Counted from the first letter of the stretch, positions 1,322 through 64,000 are shown. The stretch is 64,000 bases of DNA from Candidatus Aminicenantes bacterium (GCA_963742235.1 CAVULT010000005.1:36508-100507), one strand, 5' to 3'. The notes: generated from the sequence alone by a model not told the origin. Numbers and translations are program-made.

Positions 1322-1427
1322 TTGGGCACCTTCCTCTCAAGAAAGGAATGGGGCGCAGCCCCTGACGCGAAATGATAGTTCGGGCCATGGATTCGTGTCA
1401 ATTTGCTTTTCAGCCTGATTGTCCGCT

Positions 1428-2822
1428 ATGCTTGAGGCCAAGGCGGACGTCGATATGGGACCTGAAAAGAACAACCCGGTCGTGGATTCCCCTCTCCACA
1501 TTCTCGTCGTGGACGACGAGCTCAACATCCGGAAAACGCTGACGGTGTGTCTCGAGACGGAAGGCCACAAAGTCACCGCCGTCAGCAACTTTCAAGACGC
1601 CATGGCCGAGGCCTCGCGCAGGTCCTTCGATCTCGCCTTCGTCGACCTCAGGTTGGGCATGGATGACGGCCTCGACCTCATCCCGGCCCTTCTGGCCGCC
1701 ACGCCCTGGCTCAAGATCATCGTCATCACCGCCTATGCGTCCATCGATACGGCCGTCGAAGCCATCCGGCGAGGGGCCGCCGACTACATTCCCAAGCCGT
1801 TCACGCCGGCCCAGATCAACCTGGCGGTCCGGAAGGTGTTCGAGGTCCGTTCCCTGGAGCGGAAGGTCGCGGCGCTCCAAGAGGACCTTGGGCGCCAGCG
1901 TCCCGAGATCGACTTCTCGAGCTCGAGCCCCCGGATGCAGAGGGCCGTGAACATGGCCCGCCAGGCCGCCGCCTCCGAAGCCACGATCCTTCTCAGCGGC
2001 GAGAGCGGAACAGGCAAAACCGTCCTGGCCCGGGCCATCCATTCCTGGAGCAGCCGGGCGGACAAGTCGTTCAGCCTCATCTCTTGCCCTTCCTTCCCTC
2101 CCGAGCTGCTGGAAAGCGAGCTCTTCGGGCATGTGAAGGGAGCCTTCACGGGGGCCTTCCGCGACAACCCCGGCCGCATCGCGGCGACCGACGGCGGGAC
2201 GTTATTTCTGGATGAGATCGGCGACCTGCCGCTCCCCCTCCAGCCGAAGCTCCTGCGTTTTGTCCAGGAAAGGGAATTCGAGCGCATCGGCGACACCGTC
2301 ACGCGAAAAGCGGACGTGCGGCTGATCGCGGCCACGAATACGAACCTGGCGGAGGCGGTCAAGGAAGGCCGGTTCCGGGAAGACCTCTATTTCCGCCTCA
2401 GCGTGATCCCGATCGAGATCCCTCCCCTCCGTGAGAGACCGGACGATGTCCCCATCCTGGCGGAACGCCTCTTGGCCTTCCACGCCCGGAACAACCACCG
2501 CTCGTTCCTGGGATTCAAAGATGATGCGCTTCGGACGCTGACCGCCTACTCTTGGCCGGGGAACCTCAGGGAATTGAGCAATGCCATCGAACGCGCGGCC
2601 ATCCTCTGCCCGGCCGACCGCATCGGCCTCGAATGTCTTCCGGCGAATCTCTCTCCGGGAGGCGCCGAGGTCAAGATCGGCGATCCTGTGAGCCTCGACA
2701 AGGTCGAGGAAGCTCATATCCGGCGAGTTCTGGCGGACTCCAAATCCCTTCGCGAAGCGGCTGATATCCTCAGAATCGACCAAGCCACTCTCTGGCGACG
2801 CCGAAAACAGTACGGTCTCTGA
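1428..2822 (+). CDS. Sigma-54-dependent response regulator (NtrC family: REC + AAA+ + Fis-type HTH)
   Basis: REC domain (ILVVDDE...DLAFVDLRLG). AAA+ domain with Walker A GESGTGKT and the GAFTGA sigma-54 contact loop. C-terminal HTH (LREAADILRIDQATLWRRRKQYG). The track ORF opens at TTG 1419; ATG 1428 (or 1455) is the more likely start. Confidence 0.9.
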   Translation: MLEAKADVDMGPEKNNPVVDSPLHILVVDDELNIRKTLTVCLETEGHKVTAVSNFQDAMAEASRRSFDLAFVDLRLGMDDGLDLIPALLAATPWLKIIVITAYASIDTAVEAIRRGAADYIPKPFTPAQINLAVRKVFEVRSLERKVAALQEDLGRQRPEIDFSSSSPRMQRAVNMARQAAASEATILLSGESGTGKTVLARAIHSWSSRADKSFSLISCPSFPPELLESELFGHVKGAFTGAFRDNPGRIAATDGGTLFLDEIGDLPLPLQPKLLRFVQEREFERIGDTVTRKADVRLIAATNTNLAEAVKEGRFREDLYFRLSVIPIEIPPLRERPDDVPILAERLLAFHARNNHRSFLGFKDDALRTLTAYSWPGNLRELSNAIERAAILCPADRIGLECLPANLSPGGAEVKIGDPVSLDKVEEAHIRRVLADSKSLREAADILRIDQATLWRRRKQYGL

Positions 2823-2826
2823 TAGT

Positions 2827-2872
2827 TGCATTTTTCAATGGGCTTATCCGGAGATGTCTTGATGAATGCAAA
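2827..2872 (+). promoter_or_regulatory. Inverted repeat TTGCAT-N34-ATGCAA, candidate enhancer (UAS) for the sigma-54 activator
   Basis: TTGCAT at 2827-2832 and ATGCAA at 2867-2872, inside an unusually AT-rich gap about 70-110 nt upstream of the -24/-12 element. This is a positional argument only. Confidence 0.2.
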
Positions 2873-2935: not shown

Positions 2936-2951
2936 TGGCATGAGTCTTGCT
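2936..2951 (+). promoter_or_regulatory. Sigma-54 (-24/-12) promoter reading into the histidine kinase and kdp genes
   Basis: TGGCAT(2936-2941)-N5-TTGCT(2947-2951) has the exact GG/GC spacing of TGGCAC-N5-TTGCW. It lies 26 nt upstream of the kinase ATG, in a 150-bp AT-rich gap directly after a sigma-54 activator gene. Confidence 0.6.
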
Positions 2952-2976: not shown

Positions 2977-4815
2977 ATGCTTGGACTTCGCCAAAAAATC
3001 TCCCTGGGATTCAGCGCGCTCCTGGTCATCATCATCGTCATCGGTACCCAGAGTATTCTCCATCTGTCCAAGCTGGGCGCTTCGATCGACGTCATCCTGC
3101 GCGAAAATTACCGGAGCGTCATCGCCTGCCAGCAGATGAAGGAAGCGCTGGAGCGCATCGACAGCGGGGTTCTTTTCGTTCTTCTCGGCCATGCCCGGGA
3201 GGGGGACGAGCTCGTCCGCAACAATCAGGCCGCCTTCGAAAAGGCCCTCCAAGTCGAGCTCAGCAACATCACCCTCCCGCCCGAGGGAGAAAAAGCCGCC
3301 CGGCTGCGGGACCTTTTCGGACGCTATGAAACCCTTTTGAAAGACGTCGTCGATCCGGCCCAATCCCCGGATCTCCGGAGCCGGACCTATTTCATGAACC
3401 TCCTGCCCCTGTTCGGGCAGATCAAGAACCAGGCCGACGAGATCCTGCAGCTGAACCAGCAGAACATGAGCGACGCCAATGACCGCGCTCGCCGGAGCGC
3501 CGCATCCGCCAGAAGGCAGATGTATGTTTTTCTGTCCGTCGGCACGGCTCTGGCCGTCGTCTTCATCTTTTTCACCGGAAGATGGATCCTCCGGCCGATC
3601 CACCGCCTCATCCGGTCGGCGGACGAGATCCGGCGCGGCAACCTGGATCTCGTCGTGGCCGCCGATTCCCGGGACGAGATCGGGCACCTCTCGAAAGCGT
3701 TCAACGCCATGGCCGCAAGCCTGCGGGAGTTCCGGAGGACGGACCAGGCCAAGCTCCTCCGCATCCAAAGGGCCACGCAGCAGGCCTTCGACAGCCTTCC
3801 CGATGCGATCGCCGTCATCGACGCGGAGGGGCGGGTCGAGGTGGCCACGGAATCTGCGAGGACCGTCTTCGGGCTGAGACCCGGGGTGGCCGTCGAGGAC
3901 CTGACGTTCGCGTGGATGGCCGATCTCTGGCGGGACGCGCGTCAGGACGGCCGCAACGCATTTCTCGAAGGCCAGAGGTCCATCCAGCAATTCGTCGGGG
4001 GCGAAGAACGTTACTATCGCCCCGAAGCGGTGCCGATCCTGGATAGCGAACGCCTGACGACCGGCGTGATCCTTGTCCTCAAGGATGTCACCCAGCTCCG
4101 GCAGCAGGACGAGATCAAGAGGGGCGTCGTCCGGACCGTGTCGCATCAATTGAACACCCCGCTCACGTCGGTGCGCATGGCCATCCATCTGCTTCTCGGC
4201 GAGAAGGTCGGCGCCCTGAACGAGAAACAGGCGGAGCTTCTGATGTCGGCCCGCGAGGACAGCGACCGCCTTCACGATATCCTCAACAGCCTGCTCGATC
4301 TCAGCCGCTTCGAATCGGGCAGGGCCCTGATGGAATTCCAGTCCCTCACCCCGCGGTCGATCGTCATGGATGCCGTTGAGTCCGTCCGCCGGACCGCCCA
4401 GGATCGCGGGGTGGCTCTCGAGGCCGACGTCCCGAGCGATCTTCCCGAGGTCTGGGCCGACACGACCCGGATCGGCCACGTCTTCAGCAACCTCCTCTCG
4501 AACGCGCTCAGGCATACCTCTCCCGGCGGCCGGATCGCGCTCGCCGCCGAGGCCGATGATGCCGCAGTCCGTTTTCATGTCTCCGACTCGGGCGAGGGCA
4601 TCCCGGAGGAGTTCCTGGCCAGGGTCTTCGAGCCCTTCTTCCGGGTCCCCGGCCGCCTGAACGAGAACGGGGCGGGGCTCGGGTTGGCCATCGTCAAGGA
4701 GATCGTCGAGGCCCACGGCGGGACCGTCGGCGTGGAAAGCAGCGAGGGCAACGGATCGACCTTCACGTTCACTCTGAGAAGGGCTGACCGGTTCCCGAAA
4801 GAAGAGGCCGCCTGA
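2977..4815 (+). CDS. Sensor histidine kinase, KinB-like (four-helix-bundle sensor, TM, HAMP, PAS, HisKA, HATPase_c)
   Basis: RBS GAGGAA precedes ATG 2977; the track start at 2947 would overlap the promoter. HAMP (ILRPIHRLIRSADEIRRGNLD...DEIGHLSKAFNAM). H-box SHQLNTPLTSV. G-boxes DSGEGIP and GAGLGLAIV. Confidence 0.9.
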   Translation: MLGLRQKISLGFSALLVIIIVIGTQSILHLSKLGASIDVILRENYRSVIACQQMKEALERIDSGVLFVLLGHAREGDELVRNNQAAFEKALQVELSNITLPPEGEKAARLRDLFGRYETLLKDVVDPAQSPDLRSRTYFMNLLPLFGQIKNQADEILQLNQQNMSDANDRARRSAASARRQMYVFLSVGTALAVVFIFFTGRWILRPIHRLIRSADEIRRGNLDLVVAADSRDEIGHLSKAFNAMAASLREFRRTDQAKLLRIQRATQQAFDSLPDAIAVIDAEGRVEVATESARTVFGLRPGVAVEDLTFAWMADLWRDARQDGRNAFLEGQRSIQQFVGGEERYYRPEAVPILDSERLTTGVILVLKDVTQLRQQDEIKRGVVRTVSHQLNTPLTSVRMAIHLLLGEKVGALNEKQAELLMSAREDSDRLHDILNSLLDLSRFESGRALMEFQSLTPRSIVMDAVESVRRTAQDRGVALEADVPSDLPEVWADTTRIGHVFSNLLSNALRHTSPGGRIALAAEADDAAVRFHVSDSGEGIPEEFLARVFEPFFRVPGRLNENGAGLGLAIVKEIVEAHGGTVGVESSEGNGSTFTFTLRRADRFPKEEAA

Positions 4816-4898
4816 TGATCGACGCGCTCTTTGTTCTGCTGACGGTTCTATTCTTCGGCCTGTGCGCGCTCTACGCCAGGGCCTGCGAAAGGCTTTGA
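4815..4898 (+). CDS. 27-aa hydrophobic micro-protein, possibly a diverged KdpF-like peptide
   Basis: MIDALFVLLTVLFFGLCALYARACERL. The ATG overlaps the kinase stop (ATGA at 4813-4818). It has one TM helix and the same length and position as kdpF, which starts 3 nt after its stop. It is below the ORF-track size cutoff. Confidence 0.4.
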   Translation: MIDALFVLLTVLFFGLCALYARACERL

Positions 4899-4900
4899 CC

Positions 4901-4984
4901 ATGACCGACATCCTGGGACTGATCGTCGGGATTCTGCTCCTCGGCTATCTTCTGCTGAGTGTCCTGCGGCCCGAGAAGTTCTGA
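4901..4984 (+). CDS. kdpF: K+-transporting ATPase subunit F
   Basis: MTDILGLIVGILLLGYLLLSVLRPEKF. This is a single TM helix with the characteristic GYL...LLRPEKF C-terminus, immediately upstream of kdpA. Confidence 0.75.
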   Translation: MTDILGLIVGILLLGYLLLSVLRPEKF

Positions 4985-4997
4985 CGAGGTGACGACG

Positions 4998-6717
4998 ATG
5001 GACCTTTACGGCTGGCTTCAACTGGCCCTCTTCCTCGGCCTCCTCGTAGTGGTCACGAAGCCCCTGGGTCTCTACCTCATCCGGGTCCTCGAGCCCGAGG
5101 GCAGGACTTGGCTCGACCGCCCGGTCAAGCCCGTCGAGCGCCTCCTCTACCGGATCCTCGGCGTCGACCCGAAGACGGAGCAGGACTGGAGGCAATACAC
5201 CCGGTCCCTCATCGTCTTCAGCCTGGCCGGGCTGCTGTTCACGTACGCCGTGCTCCGGCTCCAGCATCTTCTCCCGTTGAATCCCCAGAAATTCGGACCC
5301 GTCGGGCCCGACCTCGCCTTCAACACCGCGGCCAGCTTCACCACCAACACGAACTGGCAGAATTACGCGGGGGAATCCACACTGTCCTACTTTTCGCAGA
5401 TGGTCGGGCTCGTTTTCCATAACTTTGTCTCGGCGGCGGCCGGCATCGCGGCGGCCGCGGCTCTGGTGCGGGGGATCGCCCGGCATTCGGCCAGGACGAT
5501 CGGGAATTTCTGGGTCGACGTCGTCCGCATCAACCTCTATCTCCTGCTTCCCTTCTCGATCGTCTTCTCGCTCTTCCTGACGTCGCAGGGGGTGATCCAG
5601 AACTTCAAGCCTTCCGTCAGGGCCACGACGGTCGAGAGCGCGGCCCGGACAGGCCATCGCCCAGGGCCCGGCGGCTTCCCAGGTGGCCATCAAGATGCTC
5701 GGAACGAACGGCGGCGGTTTCTTCAACGCCAACGCCGCCCATCCCTACGAGAACCCGACGCCCCTCTCGAACTTCCTCCAGATGCTCTCCATCCTCCTCA
5801 TCCCGAGCGGACTCACCTATTACCTCGGACGCAAGGTCAAGAACCAGAAGCACGGCTGGGCCCTCTGGAGCGCCATGGCCGTCATCTTCGTGGCCGCGGT
5901 GCTTGTCTGCTGGCGGTCCGAGAGCGCGGGCAATCCCCGCCTGCAGGCGCTCGGCGTCGACCCGGCCGGCGGCAACATGGAAGGCAAGGAGGTCCGCTTC
6001 GGCGTTTTCGACTCGAGCCTGTTCGCCACCGTCACGACCGCCGCCTCGTGCGGAGCGGTCAACGCCATGCACGACTCGTTCACGCCGCTCGGCGGCTTGG
6101 TCCCGCTCGTCAACATCCAGCTGGGCGAGGTCGTCTTCGGCGGGGTCGGTTCGGGCCTGTACGGGATGCTCGTCTTTGTCATCCTGGCCGTCTTCCTCAC
6201 CGGCTTGATGGTCGGACGGACGCCCGAGTATCTGGGCAAGAAGATCGAATCCTATGACGTGAAGGTCTCCGTCCTGGCCTTGCTCGTCCTGATCTTCTCG
6301 ATCCTCGGGTTCTCCGCCTGGGCCGCGACCAGCCGGTTGGGCCTGGCCGGGCTCGCCAACTCCGGCCCGCACGGCTTGAGCGAGATCCTCTACGCTTTTT
6401 CCTCCGGCACGGGCAACAACGGCAGCGGCTTCGCGGGCCTTGACGGCAACACGCCCTTTTATAACATCACCCTGGCTCTGGCCATGCTCTTCGGCCGGTT
6501 CATCATGATGGTTCCTGTCCTCGCATTGGCCGGGAACATGGCCCGGAAAAAGCTCGTCCCGCCGAGCGAAGCGAGCTTCCCCGCGAGCGGCCCGACGTTC
6601 GTCATCATCCTCATCGGGACCGTCCTCATTGTCGGCGCCCTGACCTTTCTGCCGGCCCTGGCCCTCGGTCCCATCGTCGAGCATCTCCTGATGACCGGAT
6701 CCGGGGTCCTGTATTAA
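4998..6717 (+). pseudogene. kdpA: K+-transporting ATPase subunit A, interrupted as sequenced by a 1-nt frameshift near 5641-5647
   Basis: RBS GAGGTG precedes ATG 4998. The N-terminal half lies in the frame of ORF 4959..6257 (MDLYGWLQLALFLGL...[13 protein letters not shown]). It continues in the frame of ORF 5683..6717 ([29 protein letters not shown]...). Both halves are collinear with KdpA. Confidence 0.9.
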
Positions 6718-6728
6718 GGGAGGATGAC

Positions 6729-8750
<2,022 letters not shown>

Positions 8751-8771: not shown

Positions 8772-9365
8772 ATGAAAGACTGGCTGGCCGAACTCAGGAG
8801 GTCGTTCCTGGCCGTGGCCGTCCTGGCCGTCATCCTGTGCGGCCTCTACCCGCTCGTGACCTGGGTCCTCGCTCAAGGCATCTTTCCCGGCCGGGCCAAC
8901 GGCTCGCTCATCGTGCGGGACGAAGTCGTCGCCGGGTCGAGCCTGATCGGCCAGGAGTTTGCGTCCCCGAAGTATTTTCACCCGCGCCCTTCGGCGGCCG
9001 GGAAGGGATACGACGGCGGCCGGTCCGGGGGGACGAACCTCGGGCCCTTATCGAAGGACCTCGTGGAGACTGTCCTCAGGCGGACAACCGAGTACCGGAA
9101 GGAAAATGGGCTCGCCGACGCGACTCCGGTGCCGGTCGACGCCGTCACGGCCTCGGGGAGCGGGCTCGACCCCCATATCTCTCCGGAAAACGCCCGGCTC
9201 CAGGCCTCCCGCGTGTCGAGAGCCCGGGGCCTCGCGGAGGACGTGGTCCTGGCCCGGATCAAGGCCTGCACCGAAGGCCGCACGCTGGGCATCCTGGGCG
9301 AGCCGCGGGTGAACGTCATGCGTTTGAACCTGGCCCTCGACGGAGTCTCCGATGCCGGAAGATAG
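8772..9365 (+). CDS. kdpC: K+-transporting ATPase subunit C
   Basis: N-terminal TM helix, with typical KdpC motifs (SGSGLDPHISPENARLQ, GILGEPRVNVMRLNLAL). Confidence 0.95.
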   Translation: MKDWLAELRRSFLAVAVLAVILCGLYPLVTWVLAQGIFPGRANGSLIVRDEVVAGSSLIGQEFASPKYFHPRPSAAGKGYDGGRSGGTNLGPLSKDLVETVLRRTTEYRKENGLADATPVPVDAVTASGSGLDPHISPENARLQASRVSRARGLAEDVVLARIKACTEGRTLGILGEPRVNVMRLNLALDGVSDAGR

Positions 9366-11031
9366 GGCCGACGCGTTCTTGCGGATGATCCGCCGGGCCC
9401 AGCGGGGGCGCCTGAAGATCTTCCTCGGCTACTCGGCCGGCGTCGGCAAGACCTATCAGATGCTCCAGGAAGGCCACCGGCTCAAGAGCGAGGGCATCGA
9501 CGTCGTCATCGGCCTCCTCGAAACGCACGGCCGGGCGGACATCGCCCGGCTGGCCGAAGGCCTCGAGGTCGTTCCCCGCCGCGTCCAGGAGTATCACGGC
9601 ATCGCCATCGAGGAGATGAACGCGGAAGCGGTCATCGCCCGCAAGCCCCAGCTGGCCCTGATCGACGAGCTGGCTCATACGAATGTCCCGGGCAGCCGGA
9701 ACGCCAAGCGGTACGAGGACGTCCTGGATATCCTGGCCGCGGGGATCCACGTCATCAGCACGCTCAACGTCCAGCACCTGGAAAGCCTCTACAACATCGT
9801 GGAGACGGCCGTCGGGGTCAAAGTCCGCGAACGTCTCCCGGATTCCATCCTGGCCGAGGCGGATGAGATCGTCGATGTCGACCTCGCGACCGACGACCTC
9901 CGGAAGCGCCTCGAGGAAGGGAAGATCTACCCGGCCGAGCGGATCGAAGCCGCGCGGGCCAACTTTTTCATAAGGTCCAACCTGGAAAAGCTGCGCGAGC
10001 TGACGCTTCGCGAGCTCGCCGCGCAGATCGACCTGCGCCGGCGCGAGGCCCAGGGGGCGGAGGGCGGCGCGGCCTCGGACCAGGTCATGGTCTGTCTGAG
10101 CTCGCACGGGCCGAACAGCGAGAGGCTGCTGCGCTACGGCTCCCGTCTGGCCGGAAAATTCAACCGAAACTGGTACGCCGTCTACGTCCAGACGCCGTCC
10201 GAGGAGGCCACGGTCATCGACGCTCAGGTCCAGCGCCATCTCTCGGACACGCTGACGCTGGCCAAACAGCTCGGGGCCATGGTCTTCACCTACAAGGGCG
10301 AGGACATCGCCGACACCATCCTCCGGTTCGCGGCGGAATACAGGGTCGGACACATCGTCGTGGGCAAGGCCTCCACGAGGCCTCTCTGGAAGCGGCTGGG
10401 CCGGAACAAAACGATCGTCGAGGACCTGATCAGGAACGCCCGTAACGCCACGGTCATCGTCCTGGATACGTGCCAGGCCCTGCCGGGATCCGTCCGTTCT
10501 CAACCCGAGATCCCGGAAGAAGCTTCCCCCGTCGGGCCGGCTGAGGGACCAAGTCTCCAGCCGGTCGACCGCCCTCGCCTGAGCCTCCTGTCGTCTCCCC
10601 GGCACATCGTGATCTGGGAGACGGCCGTCGAAAAGGAGACCGTTCTCAGGACCCTGGCCGCGACGGTCGCGAGGGAAGCCGGAAGCGAGTCCGCGGAGAG
10701 TGTTTTCGAGGCCATCATGAAACGGGAAGCCCAGGGCTCGACGTTTTTCAACGAGGGCGTGGCCTTCCCCCATGTCCGCGTGGAGGGATTGGCCGCTCCG
10801 GCGATCGCCCTGGGGTTGACGAGAGAGGGGGTCATCGACGTGGCGACCGACAAGCCCATCGAGATCGTCTTCCTCATCCTGTCACCGGCCCAAACCCCCG
10901 AGACACAGGTCAAGCTTCTGGGCCTGGTCAGCCGGGCTGCCCAGAACAGGTCGCTCATGCAGGCCCTGCGGTCCGTCCGGACGCCGGAAGAGGCCATGCG
11001 CGCGATCCGCGAATGGGAGACGTCGGCGTGA
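9352..11031 (+). CDS. KdpD N-terminal sensor domain + Usp domain fused to a PTS EIIA type-2 (EIIA-Ntr-like) domain; no TM region and no kinase core
   Basis: aa 18-225 match KdpD-N (KIFLGYSAGVGKTYQML, IDELAHTN). aa 243-372 match Usp (VMVCLSSHG...HIVVGK). aa 408-556 match the EIIA type-2 pattern, with the candidate phospho-His in GVAFPHVRVEG (His474, nt 10771-10773). The start overlaps the kdpC end. Confidence 0.85.
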   Translation: MPEDRADAFLRMIRRAQRGRLKIFLGYSAGVGKTYQMLQEGHRLKSEGIDVVIGLLETHGRADIARLAEGLEVVPRRVQEYHGIAIEEMNAEAVIARKPQLALIDELAHTNVPGSRNAKRYEDVLDILAAGIHVISTLNVQHLESLYNIVETAVGVKVRERLPDSILAEADEIVDVDLATDDLRKRLEEGKIYPAERIEAARANFFIRSNLEKLRELTLRELAAQIDLRRREAQGAEGGAASDQVMVCLSSHGPNSERLLRYGSRLAGKFNRNWYAVYVQTPSEEATVIDAQVQRHLSDTLTLAKQLGAMVFTYKGEDIADTILRFAAEYRVGHIVVGKASTRPLWKRLGRNKTIVEDLIRNARNATVIVLDTCQALPGSVRSQPEIPEEASPVGPAEGPSLQPVDRPRLSLLSSPRHIVIWETAVEKETVLRTLAATVAREAGSESAESVFEAIMKREAQGSTFFNEGVAFPHVRVEGLAAPAIALGLTREGVIDVATDKPIEIVFLILSPAQTPETQVKLLGLVSRAAQNRSLMQALRSVRTPEEAMRAIREWETSA

Positions 11032-11068: not shown

Positions 11069-11851
11069 ATGACACTCAAAAAGAAATTGAGCCTGGGCCT
11101 GGGGTTCCTCTTCCTGATCATCTTTGTCCTGGCGTTCGTCTGTTCCTATTATATCGGCGAGCTCTCGCGGGACGCCGGGAACATCCTGAAGGACAACTAT
11201 AAGTCCCTCGTCTTCTCCAGGAACATGATCGCGGCGCTCGAGGACACTCGGACGGCTGTCACCAGCATCGTCTTCAATCCGGCCGATGACCAGAAGACGT
11301 CCGACTACTTCATGAAGCTCTTCGAGGCCGGCCGGACTGAATTCGAGAACAGCCTCAAGTCCGAAAACGGCAACATCACCGAGATCCACGAAAGCGAATA
11401 CGTGGCCACGGTCAACCAGGTCTATGTCTTGTACGCCAACCTCGGCCTCCGGCTGATCAAGGGAGAGGGCGGCCGGGCCCTTTATTTCAACGAATACCAG
11501 CCGGCCTTCGAAAAGCTCTCCCAGGCCATCAATGCCATCAACGATCTTAACATGCAGGCGGTCGAGCGGAAGAGCCGGATGGCCAAGGATGATTCCGTCA
11601 GGATCATCCGCCTCATGGCCCTGATCGGGGTCTTTGGCCTCATCCTGGCGTTCGGCTATTTCTGGTACTTCCCCTTCTACATCTCCAACACGATCGCCTA
11701 TCTCGCGGAAAGAATGAAAACGCTCCTCGAAAAATCCGGCATCGTCCTCGACATCAAGACGAACGACGAGGCCTTCGTCATTCTGCAGGGGATCAACCTG
11801 TTGGAGAGCAGACTCGGGCTGAAGGACAAGGGGGAAGCGCAAGAGCGATGA
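11069..11851 (+). CDS. Membrane sensor module (four-helix-bundle sensor, 2 TM, HAMP-like segment) with no output domain; paralog of the N-terminus of kinase 2977..4815
   Basis: The N-terminus MTLKKKLSLGLGFLFLIIFVLAF...ILKDNYKSLVFSRNMIAALE parallels MLGLRQKISLGFSALLVIIIVIG...ILRENYRSVIACQQMKEALE of the kinase. The second TM is followed by a HAMP-like PFYISNTIAYLAERMK...NDEAFVILQGINLLESRL, and the protein then ends. Confidence 0.7.
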   Translation: MTLKKKLSLGLGFLFLIIFVLAFVCSYYIGELSRDAGNILKDNYKSLVFSRNMIAALEDTRTAVTSIVFNPADDQKTSDYFMKLFEAGRTEFENSLKSENGNITEIHESEYVATVNQVYVLYANLGLRLIKGEGGRALYFNEYQPAFEKLSQAINAINDLNMQAVERKSRMAKDDSVRIIRLMALIGVFGLILAFGYFWYFPFYISNTIAYLAERMKTLLEKSGIVLDIKTNDEAFVILQGINLLESRLGLKDKGEAQER

Positions 11852-12221: not shown

Positions 12222-14267
12222 CTATTTCTTGTCCGGTAGGGCAGCGGCCCGATCGACGGCGGCGGCCAGGTCCCTGAGGGTCAGGGGTTTCATGACGACC
12301 TCGCTCACGCCTGCCTCCCGGAGGGAATCCTCGTCGACCGACTTGCTGTAGCCCGTGGTCAGGATGATCGGAAGGTCGGGGCTGATCCTCCGCAGCTTAG
12401 CGGCCAGCTCGAGGCCGCTCATTTGGGGCATGGTCTGATCGACGACGGCCAGGTCGAAATTCTGGGGCCCGGTGCGGAAAAGCGCCAGCGCCCCGGCGGC
12501 GTTCCTGACCGCTGTCGGCTTATGACCAAATGATTCCAGGGCCCGCCGCATGGTATCGAGGACCATATCTTCGTCGTCGACGAGGAGAATGCGCCGGCTC
12601 TGGACGGCAGGGCCCCTGTCCCGAGCCCGGCGATCGCCCGCCGGCGCGACCTCGTCCGCCGTCGGGAGATAAACGCTCACGTCGGTCCCGCGGCCCACGC
12701 CGCTCTCGACGGTGATGGCCCCCCCATGGCTTTTGACGATCCCGTGGACGACCGAAAGCCCGATCCCCGTTCCCTTGCCCGCCTCCTTGGTCGTGAAAAA
12801 AGGATCGAAGATCCGATCGAGATTCTGGGGCGGTATGCCGCAGCCCGTATCTTTGACCGTCAGCCTCACGTAGGGCCCCGGGGGGACGTCGAGGAGAAAG
12901 TCTTTCGCGTCAAGATCGACGCTGGCGAGCGAAACCTCCAGGACCCCGCCCCGCTCGGCCATGGCGTCGACGGCGTTCGCGCACAGGTTGGTGACCAGCT
13001 CGTGGATCTCCGTCGGGTCTCCGCTCACTGTATCCTTAGGTTTATCCGCAACATAGCGCATCTCGATCGAGGCCGGCAAGGACGGCTTGATGAGCGTCAA
13101 GGCTTCGTCGACGACGGGTTGGATGCGGATGGCCCGGAGGTTCTGCTTCGTTTGGCGGGTGAACGACAGGATCTTCTTGACCAGGTCCCTCTGGCGGTAG
13201 GCCGCCTGGAGGATATTCTTCAGCATCGCGTGGTTCGGGGTGCCCGGTTCCGTCTCGCCGAGGAGCAGCTCGGCATTGACGACGATGGGCAGGAGGATGT
13301 TGTTCAGGTCGTGGGCGACGCCGCCAGCCAGCCGTCCGAGGGCCTCGGTGCGTTCCATCTGGCGAATCGTCTGCTCGAGCTTCATGGCGTGCGTGACATC
13401 GCGGAAGAAGACGATATAGCTCGAGATGGCCCCGGTTTGGCTCCTCAGGGGGACCACGGAGACATCCAGATCGATGGGCTTCCCGTCTTTCCGGATCCTG
13501 CCGACGTGGCCTTTCCAAATCCCCTCATTCGCGAGGACTCTCCTGACGTCTGCGACGGTCTCCGCTCCGAATCGTTCCTGGCCGGTTCCGACAAGCTCGC
13601 TGTCCGCGTACCCCGTGATCTTTTGGCAGGCCGGATTGGCGTAGATGATCTCTCCGGCCGGGTTCAGGATCATGACGCCGTCGACGGCCTGGGAAACCAC
13701 GGCCGCCAACCGCGTCAGCTCCTCCTGCGTCCGCTTTTGCTCGGTCATGTCGGCGATGACGCCGGACAGGGCGCGGATGCCTTGGATCGACATGGGCGCA
13801 AGGGACAGACGGGCCTGGAGGCGTCCGCCGGACGCCTTGAGGAATTCCACATCCGCGCGAGCGGTTTCTTTTTCGGCCTTGGCCACGAGCCGCTCCAGGT
13901 CTTCCAGAGCTGACGGCGCCGCCCGGCTGAAGAGGTTGTCCCCAAGGAGCTCCTCCAGGGAGACGTCCAGCATGGCCGCGAATTGCCTGTTGGCATAGAT
14001 AATGAAACCGTCGGGGCGGATGGTCACGGTCCCTTCGCCCATATTTTCGACGATCATCCGATAGGGGCGATCGGCGTCCTTCAGGGTATAGACCTGGTCG
14101 CCGAGCGGCCCCTTGATGACCAGGGCATCGACTTCGCCCATGCGAATGGCGTTCAGGCTCTCTTCGGCCTCCTCCAGGCGCCGCCTGAGCGCGGCGGTCT
14201 CGCGACGAGGACTGTCCAGGTCGAGGGCCTGATCCGTCACCGGCCGTCCCGCTTTCGATCCAGCCAT
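12222..14267 (-). CDS. Hybrid sensor histidine kinase (coiled coil, 2 PAS, HisKA, HATPase_c, C-terminal receiver)
   Basis: H-box GGVAHDLNNIL. G-boxes DTGCGIP and GTGIGLSVV. Receiver ILLVDDE...LAVVDQTMPQMSG...KP. RBS GGAGGA. It is the last gene of the kai operon. Confidence 0.9.
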   Translation of the reverse strand: MAGSKAGRPVTDQALDLDSPRRETAALRRRLEEAEESLNAIRMGEVDALVIKGPLGDQVYTLKDADRPYRMIVENMGEGTVTIRPDGFIIYANRQFAAMLDVSLEELLGDNLFSRAAPSALEDLERLVAKAEKETARADVEFLKASGGRLQARLSLAPMSIQGIRALSGVIADMTEQKRTQEELTRLAAVVSQAVDGVMILNPAGEIIYANPACQKITGYADSELVGTGQERFGAETVADVRRVLANEGIWKGHVGRIRKDGKPIDLDVSVVPLRSQTGAISSYIVFFRDVTHAMKLEQTIRQMERTEALGRLAGGVAHDLNNILLPIVVNAELLLGETEPGTPNHAMLKNILQAAYRQRDLVKKILSFTRQTKQNLRAIRIQPVVDEALTLIKPSLPASIEMRYVADKPKDTVSGDPTEIHELVTNLCANAVDAMAERGGVLEVSLASVDLDAKDFLLDVPPGPYVRLTVKDTGCGIPPQNLDRIFDPFFTTKEAGKGTGIGLSVVHGIVKSHGGAITVESGVGRGTDVSVYLPTADEVAPAGDRRARDRGPAVQSRRILLVDDEDMVLDTMRRALESFGHKPTAVRNAAGALALFRTGPQNFDLAVVDQTMPQMSGLELAAKLRRISPDLPIILTTGYSKSVDEDSLREAGVSEVVMKPLTLRDLAAAVDRAAALPDKK

Positions 14268-14297
14268 GGCTCAATCCTCCGGGCTAACGCCTGTCTC

Positions 14298-14723
14298 TCA
14301 GAGGTCCTTCTTTTTGGGCAAGAGATCCAACCCGACCAGAATCTTCTCGGTCTGCGAGAGGTCGCCGATGAAGGTCCGGAGCGGCAGTGGCAGCTTCCGG
14401 ATCAGCGTCGGGGCCACGACGAGCTGCTCCTTCGCGGCCAGCTCGGGTTGCTGGTAGATATCGATGATCTTCAGCCGGTAGCGTCCCTTGAGATGCTTCT
14501 CGCAAATGCGCTTGATGTTCTCGATGGCCATGACGGACCGCGGCGTCGTGCCGGTCACGTAAAGCCTCAGGAGGTACGTCCTGGCGTCATCCGAGCTCAG
14601 GGCTTTTTCGAAGGCCCCGGACCTGTTCCCGGGATTGCTTCTCTTGGCTTGGCGCGGCGCTTTTCCTGTCACGATGTTCCCCCGCTTCCGTTGACCCCTT
14701 GGATGGGCCATAGAAGCCGTCAT
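14298..14723 (-). CDS. kaiB: KaiB paralog with a roughly 45-aa basic N-terminal extension
   Basis: KaiB core [76 protein letters not shown] 14723 overlaps the upstream kaiB stop (ATGA). ATG 14711 is an alternative start. The 230-aa track ORF is an over-extension. Confidence 0.8.
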
Positions 14724-15019
14724 TGGCAGATCCTGATGTCGAGTCCCACCAGGACGCGCTCGGTATTGGAAAGATCCCCGATGATCTTCTTGATCGGCGT
14801 CGGCAGCTTCCGCACCAGCGTCGGGATGGCGAAGATCTGGTCTCCCCGGGCCAACTGCGGGTTCTCGACGAGATCGACGACCTCGATGCGATACTGTCCC
14901 GCCAGGTGCTCTTCGCAGATTTTCTTGAGGTTGGCGAACGCCACAAGCGATTTCGGCGTCTGCCCGGCGACGTACAGCCTGAGCTCCCACCGCTTCGCAC
15001 GTTTCTTCTGGGTCGGCAT
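14720..15019 (-). CDS. kaiB: Circadian clock protein KaiB homolog
   Basis: 99 aa with a thioredoxin-like KaiB signature: [72 protein letters not shown]. Confidence 0.9.
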
Positions 15020-15022
15020 CGT

Positions 15023-16786
15023 TCAGACCCTCCTTCTCGGCTCGCGCTTCCCGTCTGCGGGCTTCTCCGCGCTTTCTCCGTCCGCCTTCCGGCTCTTGGC
15101 CATGATCTCCCGATCTTCGTCTTGAACCCGAAGACCGTTCTTGGCGTAAGCAAGCTTCTGCCGGAGGTCGGTTTCGTCTCTCTCCACCTCGCCGCGGAGC
15201 CTGGCGATCTGGGCCTCGGCCTCGACGCGTTTTCGCTTGACGTCGGCTTCAAGCCGCTTGATCTCCCGCTGCTGCAAGCGTATCAGGTTCCTGTCTTCCG
15301 CTTCGCGAGAAGCCCGGGCTGAGCCGGTGAGGACGCCGGACGGCCCGAGGTAGACGTCGAGGAGGTCGATGCCCTTCGAGGACAGCACGAACTCGCGGAT
15401 CTGGTTCGAATGGGCCATGCCCCGTGATTTCAGGATATAGATGCCGCGGTTGCGCTCGCCGCCGATCTCGATATCCCTCAAAAAGATCCAAGTATCGGCC
15501 AGGGACGAGATGGAGACGGTTGTGGACTCGAGGTTCTCTCCCCCGGGCGTCAGGCTCGTGAACAGGCCCGTGGCGCCCCTGTTCTTCAGGAACGTGGAGA
15601 AGCGCATCAGCATGAGACGGACATCTCGCGTTGTCGCCACGGTCGTGAAGTTCGAGAGCGGATCCATCACCACGACCTTGGGGTCGAGGTCTTCGATTTG
15701 GCGCTGCATTGTGACGAGATGGGTCTCCAGTCCGTAGACGGTCGGGCGCGGCGCGTAGAACTTGAGCAGGCCTTTCTTGATGCAACGGTCAAGGTCGATG
15801 CCGATGGACTTCATATTCCGCATGACCTGGCCGGGGGATTCCTCGAACGTCAGGAAGACCGCGCGCTCTCCTCTGGCGCAGGCCGCTTCGACGAATTTGG
15901 CCGCGATGCTCGTTTTCCCCGTGCCGGCCGTCCCGGAGACGAGGATCATGCTGCCGCGATAGTAGCCCTTCCCGCCCAGCATGGCGTCGAGCCGCGGGAT
16001 GCCCGTTGAAACACGCTCCCGGCTCGCCGGGCGCTCGGAGTAGGCCAGGGAGGTGACGGGCAGGACCGAGATGCCGGTATCGGTGATGAGGAAGGGATAC
16101 TCGTTCGTGCCATGGGACGAGCCCCGGTATTTCAGCACTCGCAGACGGCGCGTCGGGACCTGGTCTTCCATCCTGTGGTCGAGAAGGATGACGCAGTCGG
16201 AGACGTATTCCTCGAGTCCCTCCCGGGTGAGGTGGCCGTTGCCGGCCTCCGCGGTGATGACGCTGGTCATCCCCTTTTCCTTGAGCCAGCCGAACAGGCG
16301 GCGCAGCTCCGCCCGGAGGATGCCGGCATTGGGCAAGCCGGCGAAAAGCGATTCGAGGGTGTCGAGGACGACGCGCTTGGCCCCGACCGATTCGATGGCG
16401 TGGTTGAGCCGGATGAACAGGCCCTCGAGGTCGTATTCGCCCGTTTCCTCGATCTCGTGGCGCTCAATCCTGACGTGGTCGATGACCAGCTTCTTCGTCG
16501 CCGCGAGCTTGTTCAGGTCGTAGCCGAGGGACTTGACGTTGGCCGCCAGCTCCTCCCCCGTCTCCTCGAAGGCCATGATGACGGCCGGCTCGTTGTATTC
16601 GGCGGCGCCCTTGACGGCGAATTCGATGCCCATGAGCGTCTTCCCCGTTCCAGGGGTGCCGACGATGAGGGTCGTCCGGCCGCGCGGGAATCCGCCGTCC
16701 GTCACTGCGTCGAGGCCTCGGATGCCTGTTGCGGCCTTTTCGAGGCCGGGGCCGAGAGCGCCTGCATTGGGTTTCTTCTTCGCCAT
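15023..16786 (-). CDS. kaiC: KaiC homolog (double RecA/P-loop domains) with a roughly 100-aa C-terminal coiled-coil extension
   Basis: Two Walker A motifs (GTPGTGKT, GTAGTGKT). Catalytic EE pairs (AFEETGEE, TFEESPGQ). The segment VSISSLADTWIFL is equivalent to the S/T phosphosite region. RBS GGAAGGAGAAAG precedes ATG 16786; the track start at 16873 is an over-extension. Confidence 0.9.
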   Translation of the reverse strand: MAKKKPNAGALGPGLEKAATGIRGLDAVTDGGFPRGRTTLIVGTPGTGKTLMGIEFAVKGAAEYNEPAVIMAFEETGEELAANVKSLGYDLNKLAATKKLVIDHVRIERHEIEETGEYDLEGLFIRLNHAIESVGAKRVVLDTLESLFAGLPNAGILRAELRRLFGWLKEKGMTSVITAEAGNGHLTREGLEEYVSDCVILLDHRMEDQVPTRRLRVLKYRGSSHGTNEYPFLITDTGISVLPVTSLAYSERPASRERVSTGIPRLDAMLGGKGYYRGSMILVSGTAGTGKTSIAAKFVEAACARGERAVFLTFEESPGQVMRNMKSIGIDLDRCIKKGLLKFYAPRPTVYGLETHLVTMQRQIEDLDPKVVVMDPLSNFTTVATTRDVRLMLMRFSTFLKNRGATGLFTSLTPGGENLESTTVSISSLADTWIFLRDIEIGGERNRGIYILKSRGMAHSNQIREFVLSSKGIDLLDVYLGPSGVLTGSARASREAEDRNLIRLQQREIKRLEADVKRKRVEAEAQIARLRGEVERDETDLRQKLAYAKNGLRVQDEDREIMAKSRKADGESAEKPADGKREPRRRV

Positions 16787-16872
16787 CGTCTTTCTCCTTC
16801 CCTCAGCGCCCATTGCGGCCGAGAAGAAAAGGGCCCCGTAAATGACGAGCTGGAGCCGGATACGGTAGGCCA

Positions 16873-16901
16873 ACTATATTCCGGGCCTTGGACAGAGTCA
16901 A
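16873..16901 (-). promoter_or_regulatory. Sigma-70-type promoter for the kai operon
   Basis: On the minus strand, TTGACT (16901-16896), a 17-nt spacer, then TATAGT (16878-16873). It lies about 85 nt upstream of the kaiC ATG. Confidence 0.45.
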
Positions 16902-30840: not shown

Positions 30841-32020
30841 ATGAACTTCGTCGCCGACCTGGACGTCAAAGGCAAGCTCGTCTTCCTCCGCGTCGATTTC
30901 AACGTCCCGCTCGACGATAAGGGCGGGATCCGCGACGACACGCGCATCCGCGCCTCCCTGCCCACGATCATCTGGCTCCTCGATCACGGCGCCCGCCTGG
31001 TCATCGCCTCCCACCTCGGGCGGCCCAAGGGCAAGGTCGACCCGGCGATGAGCCTCCGCCCGGCCGCGCAAAGGCTGGCCGAGCTCATCCCGAACAAGGT
31101 CGTCATGGCCCCCGACGTCGTCGGCGACGAGGTCGGGCGGCTCAAGAGCGCCCTGGGCGAGGGCGAAGCGCTCCTCCTCGAGAACGTCCGGTTCTACAAG
31201 GAGGAGGAGAAGAACGACCCGGAATTCGCCAGGAAGCTGGCCGAGGACATCGACATCTTCGTCAACGACGCCTTCGGCTCGAGCCACCGGGCCCACGCCT
31301 CGGTCGTCGGCATCGCCGACTTCGTTCCGCTCACGGCCGCCGGCTACCTGATGAAAAAGGAGGTCGAGTACCTCAAGAAGGCCATCCACACCCCGGTCAA
31401 ACCGTACGTGGCCATCCTCGGCGGGGCCAAGGTGTCGGACAAGATCGAGATCATCGAGAGCCTCCTCGGCAAGGCCGACCAGCATCCTGATCGGCGGCGC
31501 CATGGCCTACACCTTCCTGAAGGCCCAGGGTCTGGGCGTCGGCACCTCTCTCGTCGAGAACGACCAGCTCGAAGTGGCCCTGGTCATCCTGGACAAGGCC
31601 CGGACGAACGCGGTCAGCTTCCACCTGCCCCAGGACCACCTCCTGGCCAAGGCCGCGGCGGCCGGGGCGATCACGAAGGTCGTGGAAACCTTGCCCTTCC
31701 CCGAGGACATGATGGGCGTCGATATCGGTCCCAAGACCGTCGACGCCTACGCCGCGGTCATCGCCACGGCCAAGACCATCTTCTGGAACGGCCCCATGGG
31801 CATCTTCGAGATCGACGAGTTCGCCAAAGGGACGATCGGCGTCGCCAAGGCCGTGGCGGCCTCGGGCGCCGTCTCCATCGTCGGCGGCGGGGACTCGATC
31901 GCCGCCGTGAAGAAGGCCGGCGTTGCGGACAGGATCAGCCACCTCTCGACGGGCGGCGGGGCCTCTCTCGAGTACATCGCCTACGAGACCCTGCCCGGCA
32001 TCACCGCCCTGGAGAAGTAG
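30841..32020 (+). pseudogene. pgk: Phosphoglycerate kinase, interrupted as sequenced by a 1-nt insertion near 31480-31484
   Basis: The N-terminal 213 aa lie in the frame of ORF 30841 (...VAILGGAKVSDKIEIIESLLGKADQ). The protein continues in the frame of ORF 31502..32020 (ILIGGAMAYTFLKAQG...STGGGASLEYI). Removing one base restores a collinear Pgk of about 393 aa. Confidence 0.9.
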
Positions 32021-61339: not shown

Positions 61340-62446
61340 TTAGCGGCCCGGCTTGATCTCGACCTTGGCCCCGGGGCCGAGCCGGAGCTGTCCGTCCGTG
61401 ACGACGCGCTCTCCCGGCTTCAGGCCTTCGGCGATGACGGAATCTCCGCCGAATTCCCGGGCGACCTTGACCGGTCTCATCTCGGCGGTCAGGTCGTCCT
61501 TGACGACGTAGACGTACTCCCCGGACTGCCCGGTCTGGACGGCCTGCGACGGGACGGTGACGACCCCTTTCTCGGTGGTCAGCGTCAGGCGCACGTTCAG
61601 GAACTGGCCCGGCCAGAGGGCCCGGTCGGCGTTGTCGAAGGTCGCCTTGAGCATGATCGTCCCGGTCGTTTCATCGATCGCGTTGTCGACGAAGGTCAGG
61701 ACGCCGGAGGCAGGCTTCTGCCCCTCGCCCGCCGCAACGGCCTCCACTTTCAGCGCCTCTTTGGCCATGAATTCCTTGATCCGGGCCAGATTCTGTTCGG
61801 GGACGGAAAAGGTGACATAGATCGGGCTGACCTGGTCGATCACGACGGCGGCGCCGACATCGTTCGCCTTGATGATATTGCCGGCGTCGATAAGCAGCTT
61901 CCCTGTCCGGCCGTCGATCGGCGAGCGGATGGTCGCGTAGTCGAGATTGAGACGGGCGTTCGAGACGCCGGCCTCGTCGGCCTTGACGACGGCGATGAGA
62001 ACGTCGCGGTTGGCGACGAGCGCGTCGTACTGCTCCTTGGTCACATAATCCTTCTGAACGAGACCGGCGTAGCGGGCGACGTCGGCCTCGGCGTTCTTCA
62101 GCTGGGCCCGGTCCTTCTCGAGCAGGGATTCGGCCTGCCTCACGGCGATATCGAAGGTCCGGGGGTCTATCGTGAACAGCCGGTCTCCTTTCCGGACGGT
62201 CTGGCCTTCCTTGAAATAGACCCCGGTGACCTGGCCGCCGACCTGGGCCTTGACGGAAACGGTCGCGAGCGCCTCGGCCCGGCCCACCGAGGCGATCTCG
62301 AGCGGGACGTCTTTCTGTTCGGAGGAGGCCACCGTCACGGGACTCCCGGGCACGGCCGGAGGCTTCTTTTTCCCTGAGCAGGCCGATCCTCCCATGAGCG
62401 CGGCGAGTGCGATCGTGCCGATGAGCGTGTAACGAGGAGTCTTCAT
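61340..62446 (-). CDS. RND efflux periplasmic adaptor (membrane fusion protein)
   Basis: Lipobox GGSAC. Barrel-sandwich/hairpin pattern (GQVTGVYFKEGQTVRKGDRLFTID...IRSPIDGRTG). It overlaps the upstream OMF gene by 4 nt. Confidence 0.9.
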   Translation of the reverse strand: MKTPRYTLIGTIALAALMGGSACSGKKKPPAVPGSPVTVASSEQKDVPLEIASVGRAEALATVSVKAQVGGQVTGVYFKEGQTVRKGDRLFTIDPRTFDIAVRQAESLLEKDRAQLKNAEADVARYAGLVQKDYVTKEQYDALVANRDVLIAVVKADEAGVSNARLNLDYATIRSPIDGRTGKLLIDAGNIIKANDVGAAVVIDQVSPIYVTFSVPEQNLARIKEFMAKEALKVEAVAAGEGQKPASGVLTFVDNAIDETTGTIMLKATFDNADRALWPGQFLNVRLTLTTEKGVVTVPSQAVQTGQSGEYVYVVKDDLTAEMRPVKVAREFGGDSVIAEGLKPGERVVTDGQLRLGPGAKVEIKPGR

Positions 62447-63940: not shown

Positions 63941-64000
63941 GTTCAACCTCACACCTGCCCTCTCGCTAATGAGCCGAGGTGGCTGACCGGACTCCGGGGT

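Follow-up and report, generated by a model that had tools for sequence, protein, structure and literature searches.

Analysis of a 64,000-nucleotide stretch of DNA from a Candidatus Aminicenantes bacterium (GCA_963742235.1, CAVULT010000005.1:36508–100507; called the window below) identified a gene of the kdp potassium-uptake operon, at positions 9352–11031, whose 559-residue product joins the N-terminal domain of the sensor KdpD (KdpD-N) and a KdpD-type Usp domain, through a linker, to a type-2 EIIA domain of the phosphotransferase system (PTS). The analysis established the identities of these domains, the conservation of the catalytic, phospho-acceptor, and KdpB target residues, the conservation of the operon and its promoter, and how widely the fusion occurs. 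The domains and the functional themes are all known individually, whereas the combination is undescribed, although databases contain hundreds of its sequences under wrong names. We propose that the fusion protein would act on the pump subunit KdpB as a short-KdpD serine kinase whose activity the tethered EIIA domain gates through its phosphorylation state, with a sigma-54 system handling transcription; we put this reading at about even.

The fusion gene, the last of the operon, is a forward-strand open reading frame (ORF) with an ATG start and a stop codon, and its start overlaps the end of kdpC (stop codon TAG at 9363–9365) by 14 nucleotides. A Pfam scan of the protein placed the KdpD domain (PF02702) at residues 17–226 (E-value 1.2e-88), with the P-loop G26-YSAGV-G32K33T34 inside it, and the PTS_EIIA_2 domain (PF00359) at residues 416–554 (E-value 1.3e-21, 77.5 bits versus a gathering score of 27, profile positions 5–143 of 144). 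For the Usp domain between them, the Pfam match remained below threshold (18.6 bits versus a gathering score of 24); the assignment is nevertheless sound, because the NCBIfam model KdpD_non_kinase (NF038185) aligns to residues 7–370 and because the Usp part of an AlphaFold model resembles the KdpD Usp structure 7ji4 (target-normalized TM-score 0.83, Foldseek). The linker differs in length and sequence among family members. In two full-length AlphaFold models, built with 42 and 121 sequences, the overall pTM was 0.34–0.35 and the linker (residues ~375–406) had a pLDDT of about 30; in these models the domains seem to behave like beads on a string, and only the folds of the individual domains are usable. 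The Pfam scan gave no match to HisKA, HATPase, or DUF4118, there is no hydrophobic segment in the protein (maximum 19-residue Kyte–Doolittle mean 1.31), and it is predicted to be soluble. An initial annotation, made from the sequence alone, had proposed this three-domain architecture lacking transmembrane helices and a HisKA/HATPase core, and in all these points it agrees with the results. Neither existing KdpD model describes the protein in full: the model of full-length KdpD (NF007793) aligned over its positions 10–372 only (342.6 bits versus a cut-off of 1123), and that of the "KdpD-like non-kinase potassium sensor" (NF038185) aligned over all of its 373 positions, with 350.7 bits versus a cut-off of 550.

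The EIIA domain retains the residues of a PTS phosphorylation site. The peptide GVAFPHVRVEG (10756–10788) contains His474 (codon 10771–10773), which aligns with the phospho-His73 of Escherichia coli PtsN; the initial annotation, too, had taken this histidine for the one at which EIIA proteins are phosphorylated. The active-site Arg458 lies within a REKxGST motif. Among 121 homologs Arg458 is kept in all and His474 in 120, down to 37% full-length identity, a pattern that argues for a functional phospho-site. A phmmer search against PDB sequences returned EIIA proteins alone, the top four of them PtsN proteins (1a6j at 3e-13, 2a0j, 3urr, 4gqx), and Foldseek matched the EIIA model to the same four structures with target-normalized TM-scores of 0.78–0.85. 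The assignment to EIIA type 2 was thus borne out at both profile and structure level. The label "nitrogen PTS", which the initial annotation had also used, fares less uniformly: the similarity to PtsN is real, but the equivalog cut-offs for PtsN (TIGR01419, NF008145) are not reached (56.5 versus 138.7; 49.8 versus 221), the domain scores just as well against a fructose IIA model (57.2), and no gene for EI, NPr, or HPr turned up in the window. It has the EIIA-2 fold with His and Arg at the PtsN positions, but as part of a 559-residue protein rather than as a stand-alone protein of ~160 residues. The annotation "PTS sugar transporter subunit IIA" does not fit either, as the neighboring genes are kdpFABC and two-component genes; no PTS permease (EIIB/EIIC) domain was found by Pfam among the scanned genes of the window.

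At the other end of the protein, the description "kinase-less" given in the initial annotation proved misleading. As an atypical serine kinase, the N-terminal domain of KdpD phosphorylates Ser162 of KdpB and so inhibits KdpFABC (Silberberg et al, 2024; PMC11018627), and the E. coli domain acts on this residue also in isolation (PMC11018627). Short KdpD/Usp proteins phosphorylate KdpB as well; their genes are kept downstream of the pump, and a separate two-component system runs transcription (PMC11018627). The key residues in E. coli are the Walker A motif G-X5-GKT, W39, the Walker B residues D109/E110, and R190 (PMC11018627). Aligned with the E. coli KdpD sequence taken from NC_000913.3, the fusion protein has all of them: G26 corresponds to G30, G32/K33/T34 to G36/K37/T38, D105/E106 to D109/E110, and R186 to R190, and in the adenine-contacting pair Y35/R186 the tryptophan of E. 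coli (W39) is replaced by tyrosine. Across the 121 homologs K33, D105, E106, and R186 are invariant, T34 is kept in 120 and Y35 in 117, and in a set of 70 homologs the kinase residues are likewise invariant or nearly so. The fusion protein therefore combines Walker A, the Walker B Asp-Glu, and the aromatic/Arg pair of a KdpD-type serine kinase. Its presumptive substrate is preserved too: KdpB of the window is 66% identical to E. coli KdpB, and E155/S156 (E161/S162 in E. coli) lie within a 15-residue stretch identical to E. coli residues 155–169. On these grounds the fusion protein is predicted to phosphorylate KdpB in an ATP-dependent manner. In the Usp domain, R261-X3-R265-X8-W274YAVY278 follows the E. 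coli-type motif RXXXR-X8-WXAVY, and inspection of the sequence showed that the motif SXS-X20-FTAXY linked to cyclic di-AMP (c-di-AMP) is not carried by this domain (both motifs as defined in PMC4686210). An input other than c-di-AMP is therefore plausible.

The fusion is genuine, as first proposed, and widespread. A scan of GTDB with the linker and EIIA region, taking one genome per species and using a 3-sequence alignment and two peptide patterns, found relatives in 190 species, a minimum figure, since the two patterns miss divergent lineages such as Leptospira and Thermoanaerobaculia. Eighty of these species loci were fetched for comparison. In 69 of them, a single stop-terminated ORF of 552–596 residues contains both the P-loop and the EIIA domain; the other 11 are either cut at contig ends (5) or frame-broken (6), and wherever upstream DNA was present, KdpD-N and Usp precede EIIA on the same strand in all 80. 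The 69 single-ORF loci span Aminicenantes, Thermodesulfobacteriota, and Krumholzibacteriia, and a cultured carrier, from the Thermodesulfobacteriota, is Syntrophorhabdus aromaticivorans UI (L041). Among public proteins, one is identical to the fusion protein, and the best 120 clusters (76–100% identity) have both Pfam domains, nearly all at 556–568 residues. HMMER over 1.84 billion 50%-identity representatives gave about 12 full-length fusion representatives down to 39% identity, all of which keep the P-H motif. A profile search and a Leptospira-seeded search each yielded at least 120 further two-domain clusters. Taken together, the protein searches gave, besides the identical protein, over 230 clusters at 90% identity in which both domains are present, nearly all at 520–606 residues. 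Source names of the clusters include Aminicenantes, Thermoanaerobaculia, Thermodesulfobacteriota, Desulfobacterium sp. N47, Desulfobacterales, Chlorobiaceae, Dadabacteria, and Leptospira sp. 96542. In public annotation the homologs are called "PTS sugar transporter subunit IIA" or "sensor histidine kinase KdpD", and neither name is apt.

These data bear directly on the suspicion that the gene might be the N-terminal piece of a full-length kdpD, as the initial annotation itself had allowed, or a chimeric mis-assembly. Other genes of the window (kdpA, pgk, and an outer-membrane efflux gene) do show frame disruptions; yet independent assemblies contain the identical protein and hundreds of clusters of nearly identical length, the single ORF and its operon are conserved across phyla, and, in line with the first reading of the sequence, no kinase core follows downstream, where the next gene encodes a two-transmembrane protein with a 4HB-like domain. 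An artefact can practically be dismissed, and the comparative data rule out a fragment of a longer kdpD. Short relatives that seem to lack EIIA (P0124–P0126) were considered as a separate class and rejected, since by eye their C-terminal sequences look like those of frame-shifted or truncated fusions. Full-text literature searches found no paper describing a KdpD–EIIA architecture. The 2024 survey of KdpD diversity (PMC11018627) and the supplements consulted mention neither PTS nor EIIA, and a review of PTS-Ntr (PMC13104625) does not mention fused EIIA forms. The search of representatives also returned proteins of ~750 residues (P0127, P0137, P0146, and others) with two tandem KdpD-N + Usp units in Pfam, which are another undescribed KdpD variant.

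The fusion gene stands at the end of a sigma-54-linked kdp operon, as the initial annotation had it. The usual gene order is sigma-54 regulator, kinase, kdpFABC, fusion, and it recurs in an 82%-identical relative (L001), in L003 (52%), in Leptospira (L005, 44%), and in most of the 80 GTDB loci. An NtrC-type regulator is kept upstream of the operon in most related loci; all NCBIfam matches of the one in the window fall below equivalog cut-offs. A –24/–12 promoter lies about 40 nucleotides before the kinase gene in the window, and of 61 related loci 52 have a match with at most one mismatch at 39–52 nucleotides upstream of the kinase start, compared with 0 of 61 for a control region inside the kinase gene. 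Because the promoter is kept at this fixed distance, the kinase gene, kdpFABC, and the fusion gene are probably one sigma-54 transcription unit. An element of the form TTGCAT...ATGCAA, also present in L001, sits in the AT-rich spacer in front of the promoter and is a candidate upstream activating sequence (UAS). The operon kinase, whose ATG at 2977 is preceded by a GAGGAAA ribosome-binding site, is not KdpD-like. The name "KinB-like" that it had received was rejected: its best NCBIfam matches are PnpS, WalK, and PhoR, all below cut-off.

Around the pump and the fusion, the partners vary. In L017, L019, L020, L023, and L033 the order is kinase, fusion, kdpABC. A Thermoanaerobaculia locus (L004, 11760–13948, minus strand) has the unusual order kdpACB, fusion; after these come a divergent KdpE-like OmpR regulator and a kinase with DUF4118, HisKA, and HATPase domains. 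This kinase is the C-terminal half of KdpD and the fusion, in this genome, the N-terminal half of a split KdpD. Some delta-proteobacterial metagenome-assembled genomes have an extra gene of ~420 codons adjoining the fusion (L044 7515–8807, L066 7529–8794, L053 6899–8179), which encodes Usp, a DUF4118-like transmembrane part, and a GAF-like region, that is, the middle part of KdpD, so that KdpD is split into at least three proteins there. Where a related locus includes enough flanking DNA, the fusion gene almost always adjoins kdpABC, and what all contexts share is the pump rather than any one kinase.

In the mechanism that we propose, KdpD-N would phosphorylate Ser156 in the TGES motif of KdpB (E. 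coli Ser162) and thereby switch off KdpFABC pumps already in the membrane. The overlap with kdpC points to probable translational coupling, by which the fusion protein would be made along with the pump. The His474/Arg458 site of EIIA would receive its phosphoryl group from a PTS relay, through a carrier of the HPr or NPr type, and its phosphorylation state would gate the serine kinase, coupling K+ uptake post-translationally to a PTS signal such as phosphoenolpyruvate supply or carbon/nitrogen status. Transcription of the operon would be run separately by the NtrC-type activator, the histidine kinase encoded by the first gene, and the sigma-54 promoter. We infer the kinase activity on KdpB, the phosphorylation of His474, and the gating of the one by the other from sequence, which gives no direction for the effect. 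To the more specific idea of a PTS-gated protein serine kinase, in which the phosphorylation state of a covalent EIIA(Ntr)-like domain directly switches a KdpD-type kinase that inactivates KdpFABC, we give a little under even weight.

Several observations weigh against gating by the PTS. Genes for EI and NPr, which the initial annotation had suggested looking for, and for HPr were not found in the window (Pfam scans of ~50 genes; tblastn) or in the 85 related loci (tblastn with E. coli and Bacillus subtilis queries, a weak search for an 85-residue protein); these searches covered the window and the fetched loci and say little about other parts of the genome. Documentation of PTS-Ntr comes mainly from Proteobacteria (the delta subdivision included), Chlamydiales, Spirochaetales, and Planctomycetales (2026 review, PMC13104625), and for Aminicenantes our literature search gave one report only, of a putative mannose PTS. 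In E. coli, the target of PtsN on KdpD is the transmitter (DHp/CA) domain (Mork-Morkenstein, 2017, as cited in PMC13104625), which is exactly the part absent from the fusion protein. The initial annotation had read the fusion as a Rosetta-stone link between two interaction partners; the underlying theme of PtsN and K+ homeostasis is real, since in several proteobacteria KdpD is under the control of PtsN, and in rhizobia ptsN2 is found inside a kdp cluster (PMC13104625), but the argument holds only loosely, as the domain to which E. coli PtsN binds is lacking here. Both AlphaFold models, with a pTM of ~0.35 and a disordered linker, provide no evidence of EIIA docking on the kinase domain. Finally, Ser251 and Tyr278 match Ser244 and Tyr271 of Staphylococcus aureus, residues that play an important part in binding c-di-AMP (PMC4686210), so that nucleotide control through the Usp domain is possible.

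This last point leads to a reading in which EIIA is a phosphorylation-independent module for binding proteins or ligands or for dimerization, and a nucleotide such as c-di-AMP or ATP controls the kinase through Usp, as in Deinococcus geothermalis, whose short KdpD is stimulated by c-di-AMP through its Usp domain (PMC11018627). The match of Ser251/Tyr278 to two c-di-AMP-binding residues, the EIIA scores below the PtsN cut-offs, and the failure to find a phosphodonor gene in the DNA searched (window and 85 loci) would all fit it. We rate it as quite improbable: the near-complete conservation of His474 and Arg458 is what one expects of a phospho-site that works, the motif in Usp is the E. coli one and not SXS-X20-FTAXY, and the Delta-proteobacteria and spirochaetes, which include carriers of the fusion, are reported to have PTS-Ntr (PMC13104625). 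An alternative that keeps a phosphorylated EIIA places its output mainly in transcription, with EIIA in one phosphorylation state binding the DHp/CA part of the operon kinase (2977–4815) or the sigma-54 activator, so modulating kdp expression as free PtsN does through E. coli KdpD, and with KdpD-N/Usp serving as scaffold or sensor; this role and action on KdpB could exist side by side. The transmitter domain of KdpD is a binding target of PtsN, which acts on other kinases as well (PMC13104625), in most loci the fusion is accompanied by the sigma-54 regulator and kinase pair, the KdpD N-terminal domain complements a separate C-terminal domain in E. coli (Heermann, 2000, as cited in PMC11018627), and a long flexible linker would let EIIA reach a partner in trans. 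Against this stands the variation of the partner kinase, of the 4HB-HAMP-PAS type here and of the DUF4118 type (KdpD C-terminal half, with a KdpE-like regulator) in Thermoanaerobaculia, while kdpABC and the serine-kinase residues are constant; moreover, a mere scaffold leaves the strict conservation of Walker A/B, R186, and KdpB Ser156 unexplained. We consider a mainly transcriptional role unlikely. Action in trans on the neighboring kinase or the activator, the output favored by the initial annotation, is possible and less economical than action on KdpB.

If gated phosphorylation of KdpB holds true, the fusion would give Acidobacteriota, Thermodesulfobacteriota, Krumholzibacteriota, and some spirochaetes a hard-wired route by which phosphoenolpyruvate and carbon/nitrogen status control a P-type ATPase post-translationally, and it would be evolutionary evidence for control of K+ homeostasis as an ancestral core role of regulatory EIIA proteins. 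It touches two questions: how serine-kinase activity is controlled in species whose short KdpD has no K+-sensing transmembrane/GAF domains, and what the conserved physiological output of the nitrogen-related PTS is. For both it gives a concrete, testable answer, namely that phospho-EIIA gates inhibition of the pump. The fusion, its phospho-site intact, is conserved across several phyla, in 190 species or more. It also takes the connection between PTS and potassium well past the Proteobacteria in which this has been studied, and the cultured carriers (S. aromaticivorans UI; a Leptospira genome record) together with a soluble protein make experiments practical.

Features of the kdp operon and of the fusion gene in the window, with the basis of each assignment.
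Feature	Position	Strand	Basis
NtrC-type sigma-54-dependent response regulator (REC, AAA+ sigma-54 interaction domain, HTH_8)	1419..2822	+	Pfam
Candidate enhancer (UAS) TTGCATTTTTCAATG ... TTGATGAATGCAA, inverted TTGCAT/ATGCAA ends	2826..2871	.	Read from sequence
Sigma-54 (–24/–12) promoter TGGCATGAGTCTTGCT, ~41 nt before kinase ATG	2936..2951	+	Sequence and relatives
Membrane histidine kinase: transmembrane segment, periplasmic 4HB sensor, transmembrane segment, HAMP, PAS, HisKA, HATPase	2977..4815	+	Pfam, hydropathy, NCBIfam
Hydrophobic micro-ORF of 27 residues MIDALFVLLTVLFFGLCALYARACERL, just before kdpF	4815..4898	+	Conserved in relatives
kdpF	4901..4984	+	TIGR02115, 31.7 bits versus cut-off 26.85
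kdpA, frame broken at ~5640–5655	4998..6717	+	Pfam halves in two frames; tblastn
kdpB (P-type ATPase), TGES Ser156 = E. coli Ser162	6729..8750	+	Pfam; E. coli alignment
kdpC	8772..9365	+	Pfam
Fusion gene (559 residues: KdpD-N serine-kinase domain, Usp, linker, EIIA)	9352..11031	+	ORF, Pfam, NCBIfam, homologs, structure, alignment
KdpD-N domain	9400..10029	+	PF02702; PDB 2r8r, E-value 5e-61; residue mapping to E. coli
KdpD-type Usp domain, residues ~243–372	10078..10467	+	Pfam (sub-threshold), NCBIfam, 7ji4 fold match
Flexible linker, Pro/Glu/Ser-rich, residues ~373–407	10468..10572	+	AlphaFold pLDDT ~30; variable in family
PTS EIIA type-2 (PtsN-like) domain, residues 416–554, Arg458 and His474	10597..11013	+	PF00359, PtsN structures
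Two-transmembrane protein of 260 residues, periplasmic 4HB_MCP-like domain	11069..11851	+	Pfam, hydropathy

Two further genes flank the pump and fusion genes. The micro-ORF in front of kdpF matched no NCBIfam family; homologs ending in FFGLCxLYxRACERL occur in at least 46 of the 85 related loci, across phyla. Wherever both it and kdpF could be placed, the micro-ORF is immediately upstream of kdpF, and this holds for the rearranged loci L017, L020, and L023 too. It may encode an unannotated extra small subunit or a regulator of KdpFABC. Downstream of the fusion gene, the protein encoded at 11069–11851 has a topology like that of the sensor part of the operon kinase, but without the kinase; homologs with 72–85% identity are found near the operon in many Aminicenantes loci, with varying positions and strands, which makes it a possible accessory protein in loose association.

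Several genes of the window are interrupted. Relative to the 82%-identical L001, a 26-nucleotide deletion at ~5640–5655 splits kdpA into two frames (tblastn and sequence comparison), and this break is either a pseudogene or an assembly error. The pgk gene (30841–32020) is frame-shifted near 31480–31500, with its N-terminal half in the 30841 frame and its C-terminal half from 31502, and an outer-membrane efflux (OEP) gene (62443–63952, minus strand) is split into two overlapping ORFs. Of the six related loci with broken fusion genes, several come from the MFD series. These breaks, in kdpA, pgk, and the OEP gene as in the related loci, most likely reflect indels introduced in assembly; the ORF of the fusion is unbroken, and its product is identical to the public protein. 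Elsewhere in the window, genes for KaiC (15023–16873) and KaiB (14720–15019) stand directly upstream of one for a hybrid PAS-HisKA-HATPase-REC kinase (12222–14267), all on the minus strand; the region 12222–16873 is a putative non-cyanobacterial KaiBC output module in an Aminicenantes genome.

Among known systems, the short KdpD of D. geothermalis (Q1J2K3; PMC11018627) resembles the fusion protein as a soluble KdpD-N + Usp protein without transmembrane, GAF, or DHp/CA domains, in which the serine-kinase residues, and in KdpB the TGES serine, are kept; its gene, too, directly follows kdpC, and a separate two-component system serves transcription. Unlike it, the fusion protein has a C-terminal EIIA type-2 domain on a flexible linker, and its Usp motif is of the E. 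coli and not of the c-di-AMP type. With E. coli PtsN and the rhizobial ptsN2 of the kdpDE cluster (PMC13104625) it shares an EIIA-Ntr-type domain, with phospho-His and Arg, linked to Kdp. Whereas E. coli PtsN is free and binds the transmitter half of KdpD, the EIIA domain here is covalently joined to the N-terminal half, scores below the PtsN equivalog cut-offs, and is not encoded in an rpoN operon. The hosts of the fusion are mostly outside the classical Proteobacteria (Acidobacteriota, Krumholzibacteriota, and others) or belong to the former delta-proteobacteria. Compared with the cyanobacterial-type short KdpD described by NF038185, whose model is spanned by residues 7–370, the fusion protein has ~190 extra residues, including EIIA. 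EIIA type-2 domains of the Mtl/Fru type also occur as a built-in, phosphorylation-controlled module of non-transport proteins in PRD-containing transcription regulators such as MtlR and LicR. The output of these is a DNA- or RNA-binding regulator, whereas that of the fusion would be a protein serine kinase controlling a P-type ATPase. A last comparison is with Desulfovibrio vulgaris, where DVU3334 is, we assume, sigma-54-dependent. In this species (DVU3334–3339; Rajeev et al, 2011; PMC3333781), kdpFABC shares an operon with its own response regulator, as in the fusion operon, and no EIIA domain is reported for DVU3336 (PMC3333781). DVU3336, a KdpD-sensor/Usp protein, is accompanied by the separate kinase DVU3335 (PMC3333781), and kinase function is described as split between the two, in a host from the broad lineage to which many carriers of the fusion belong.

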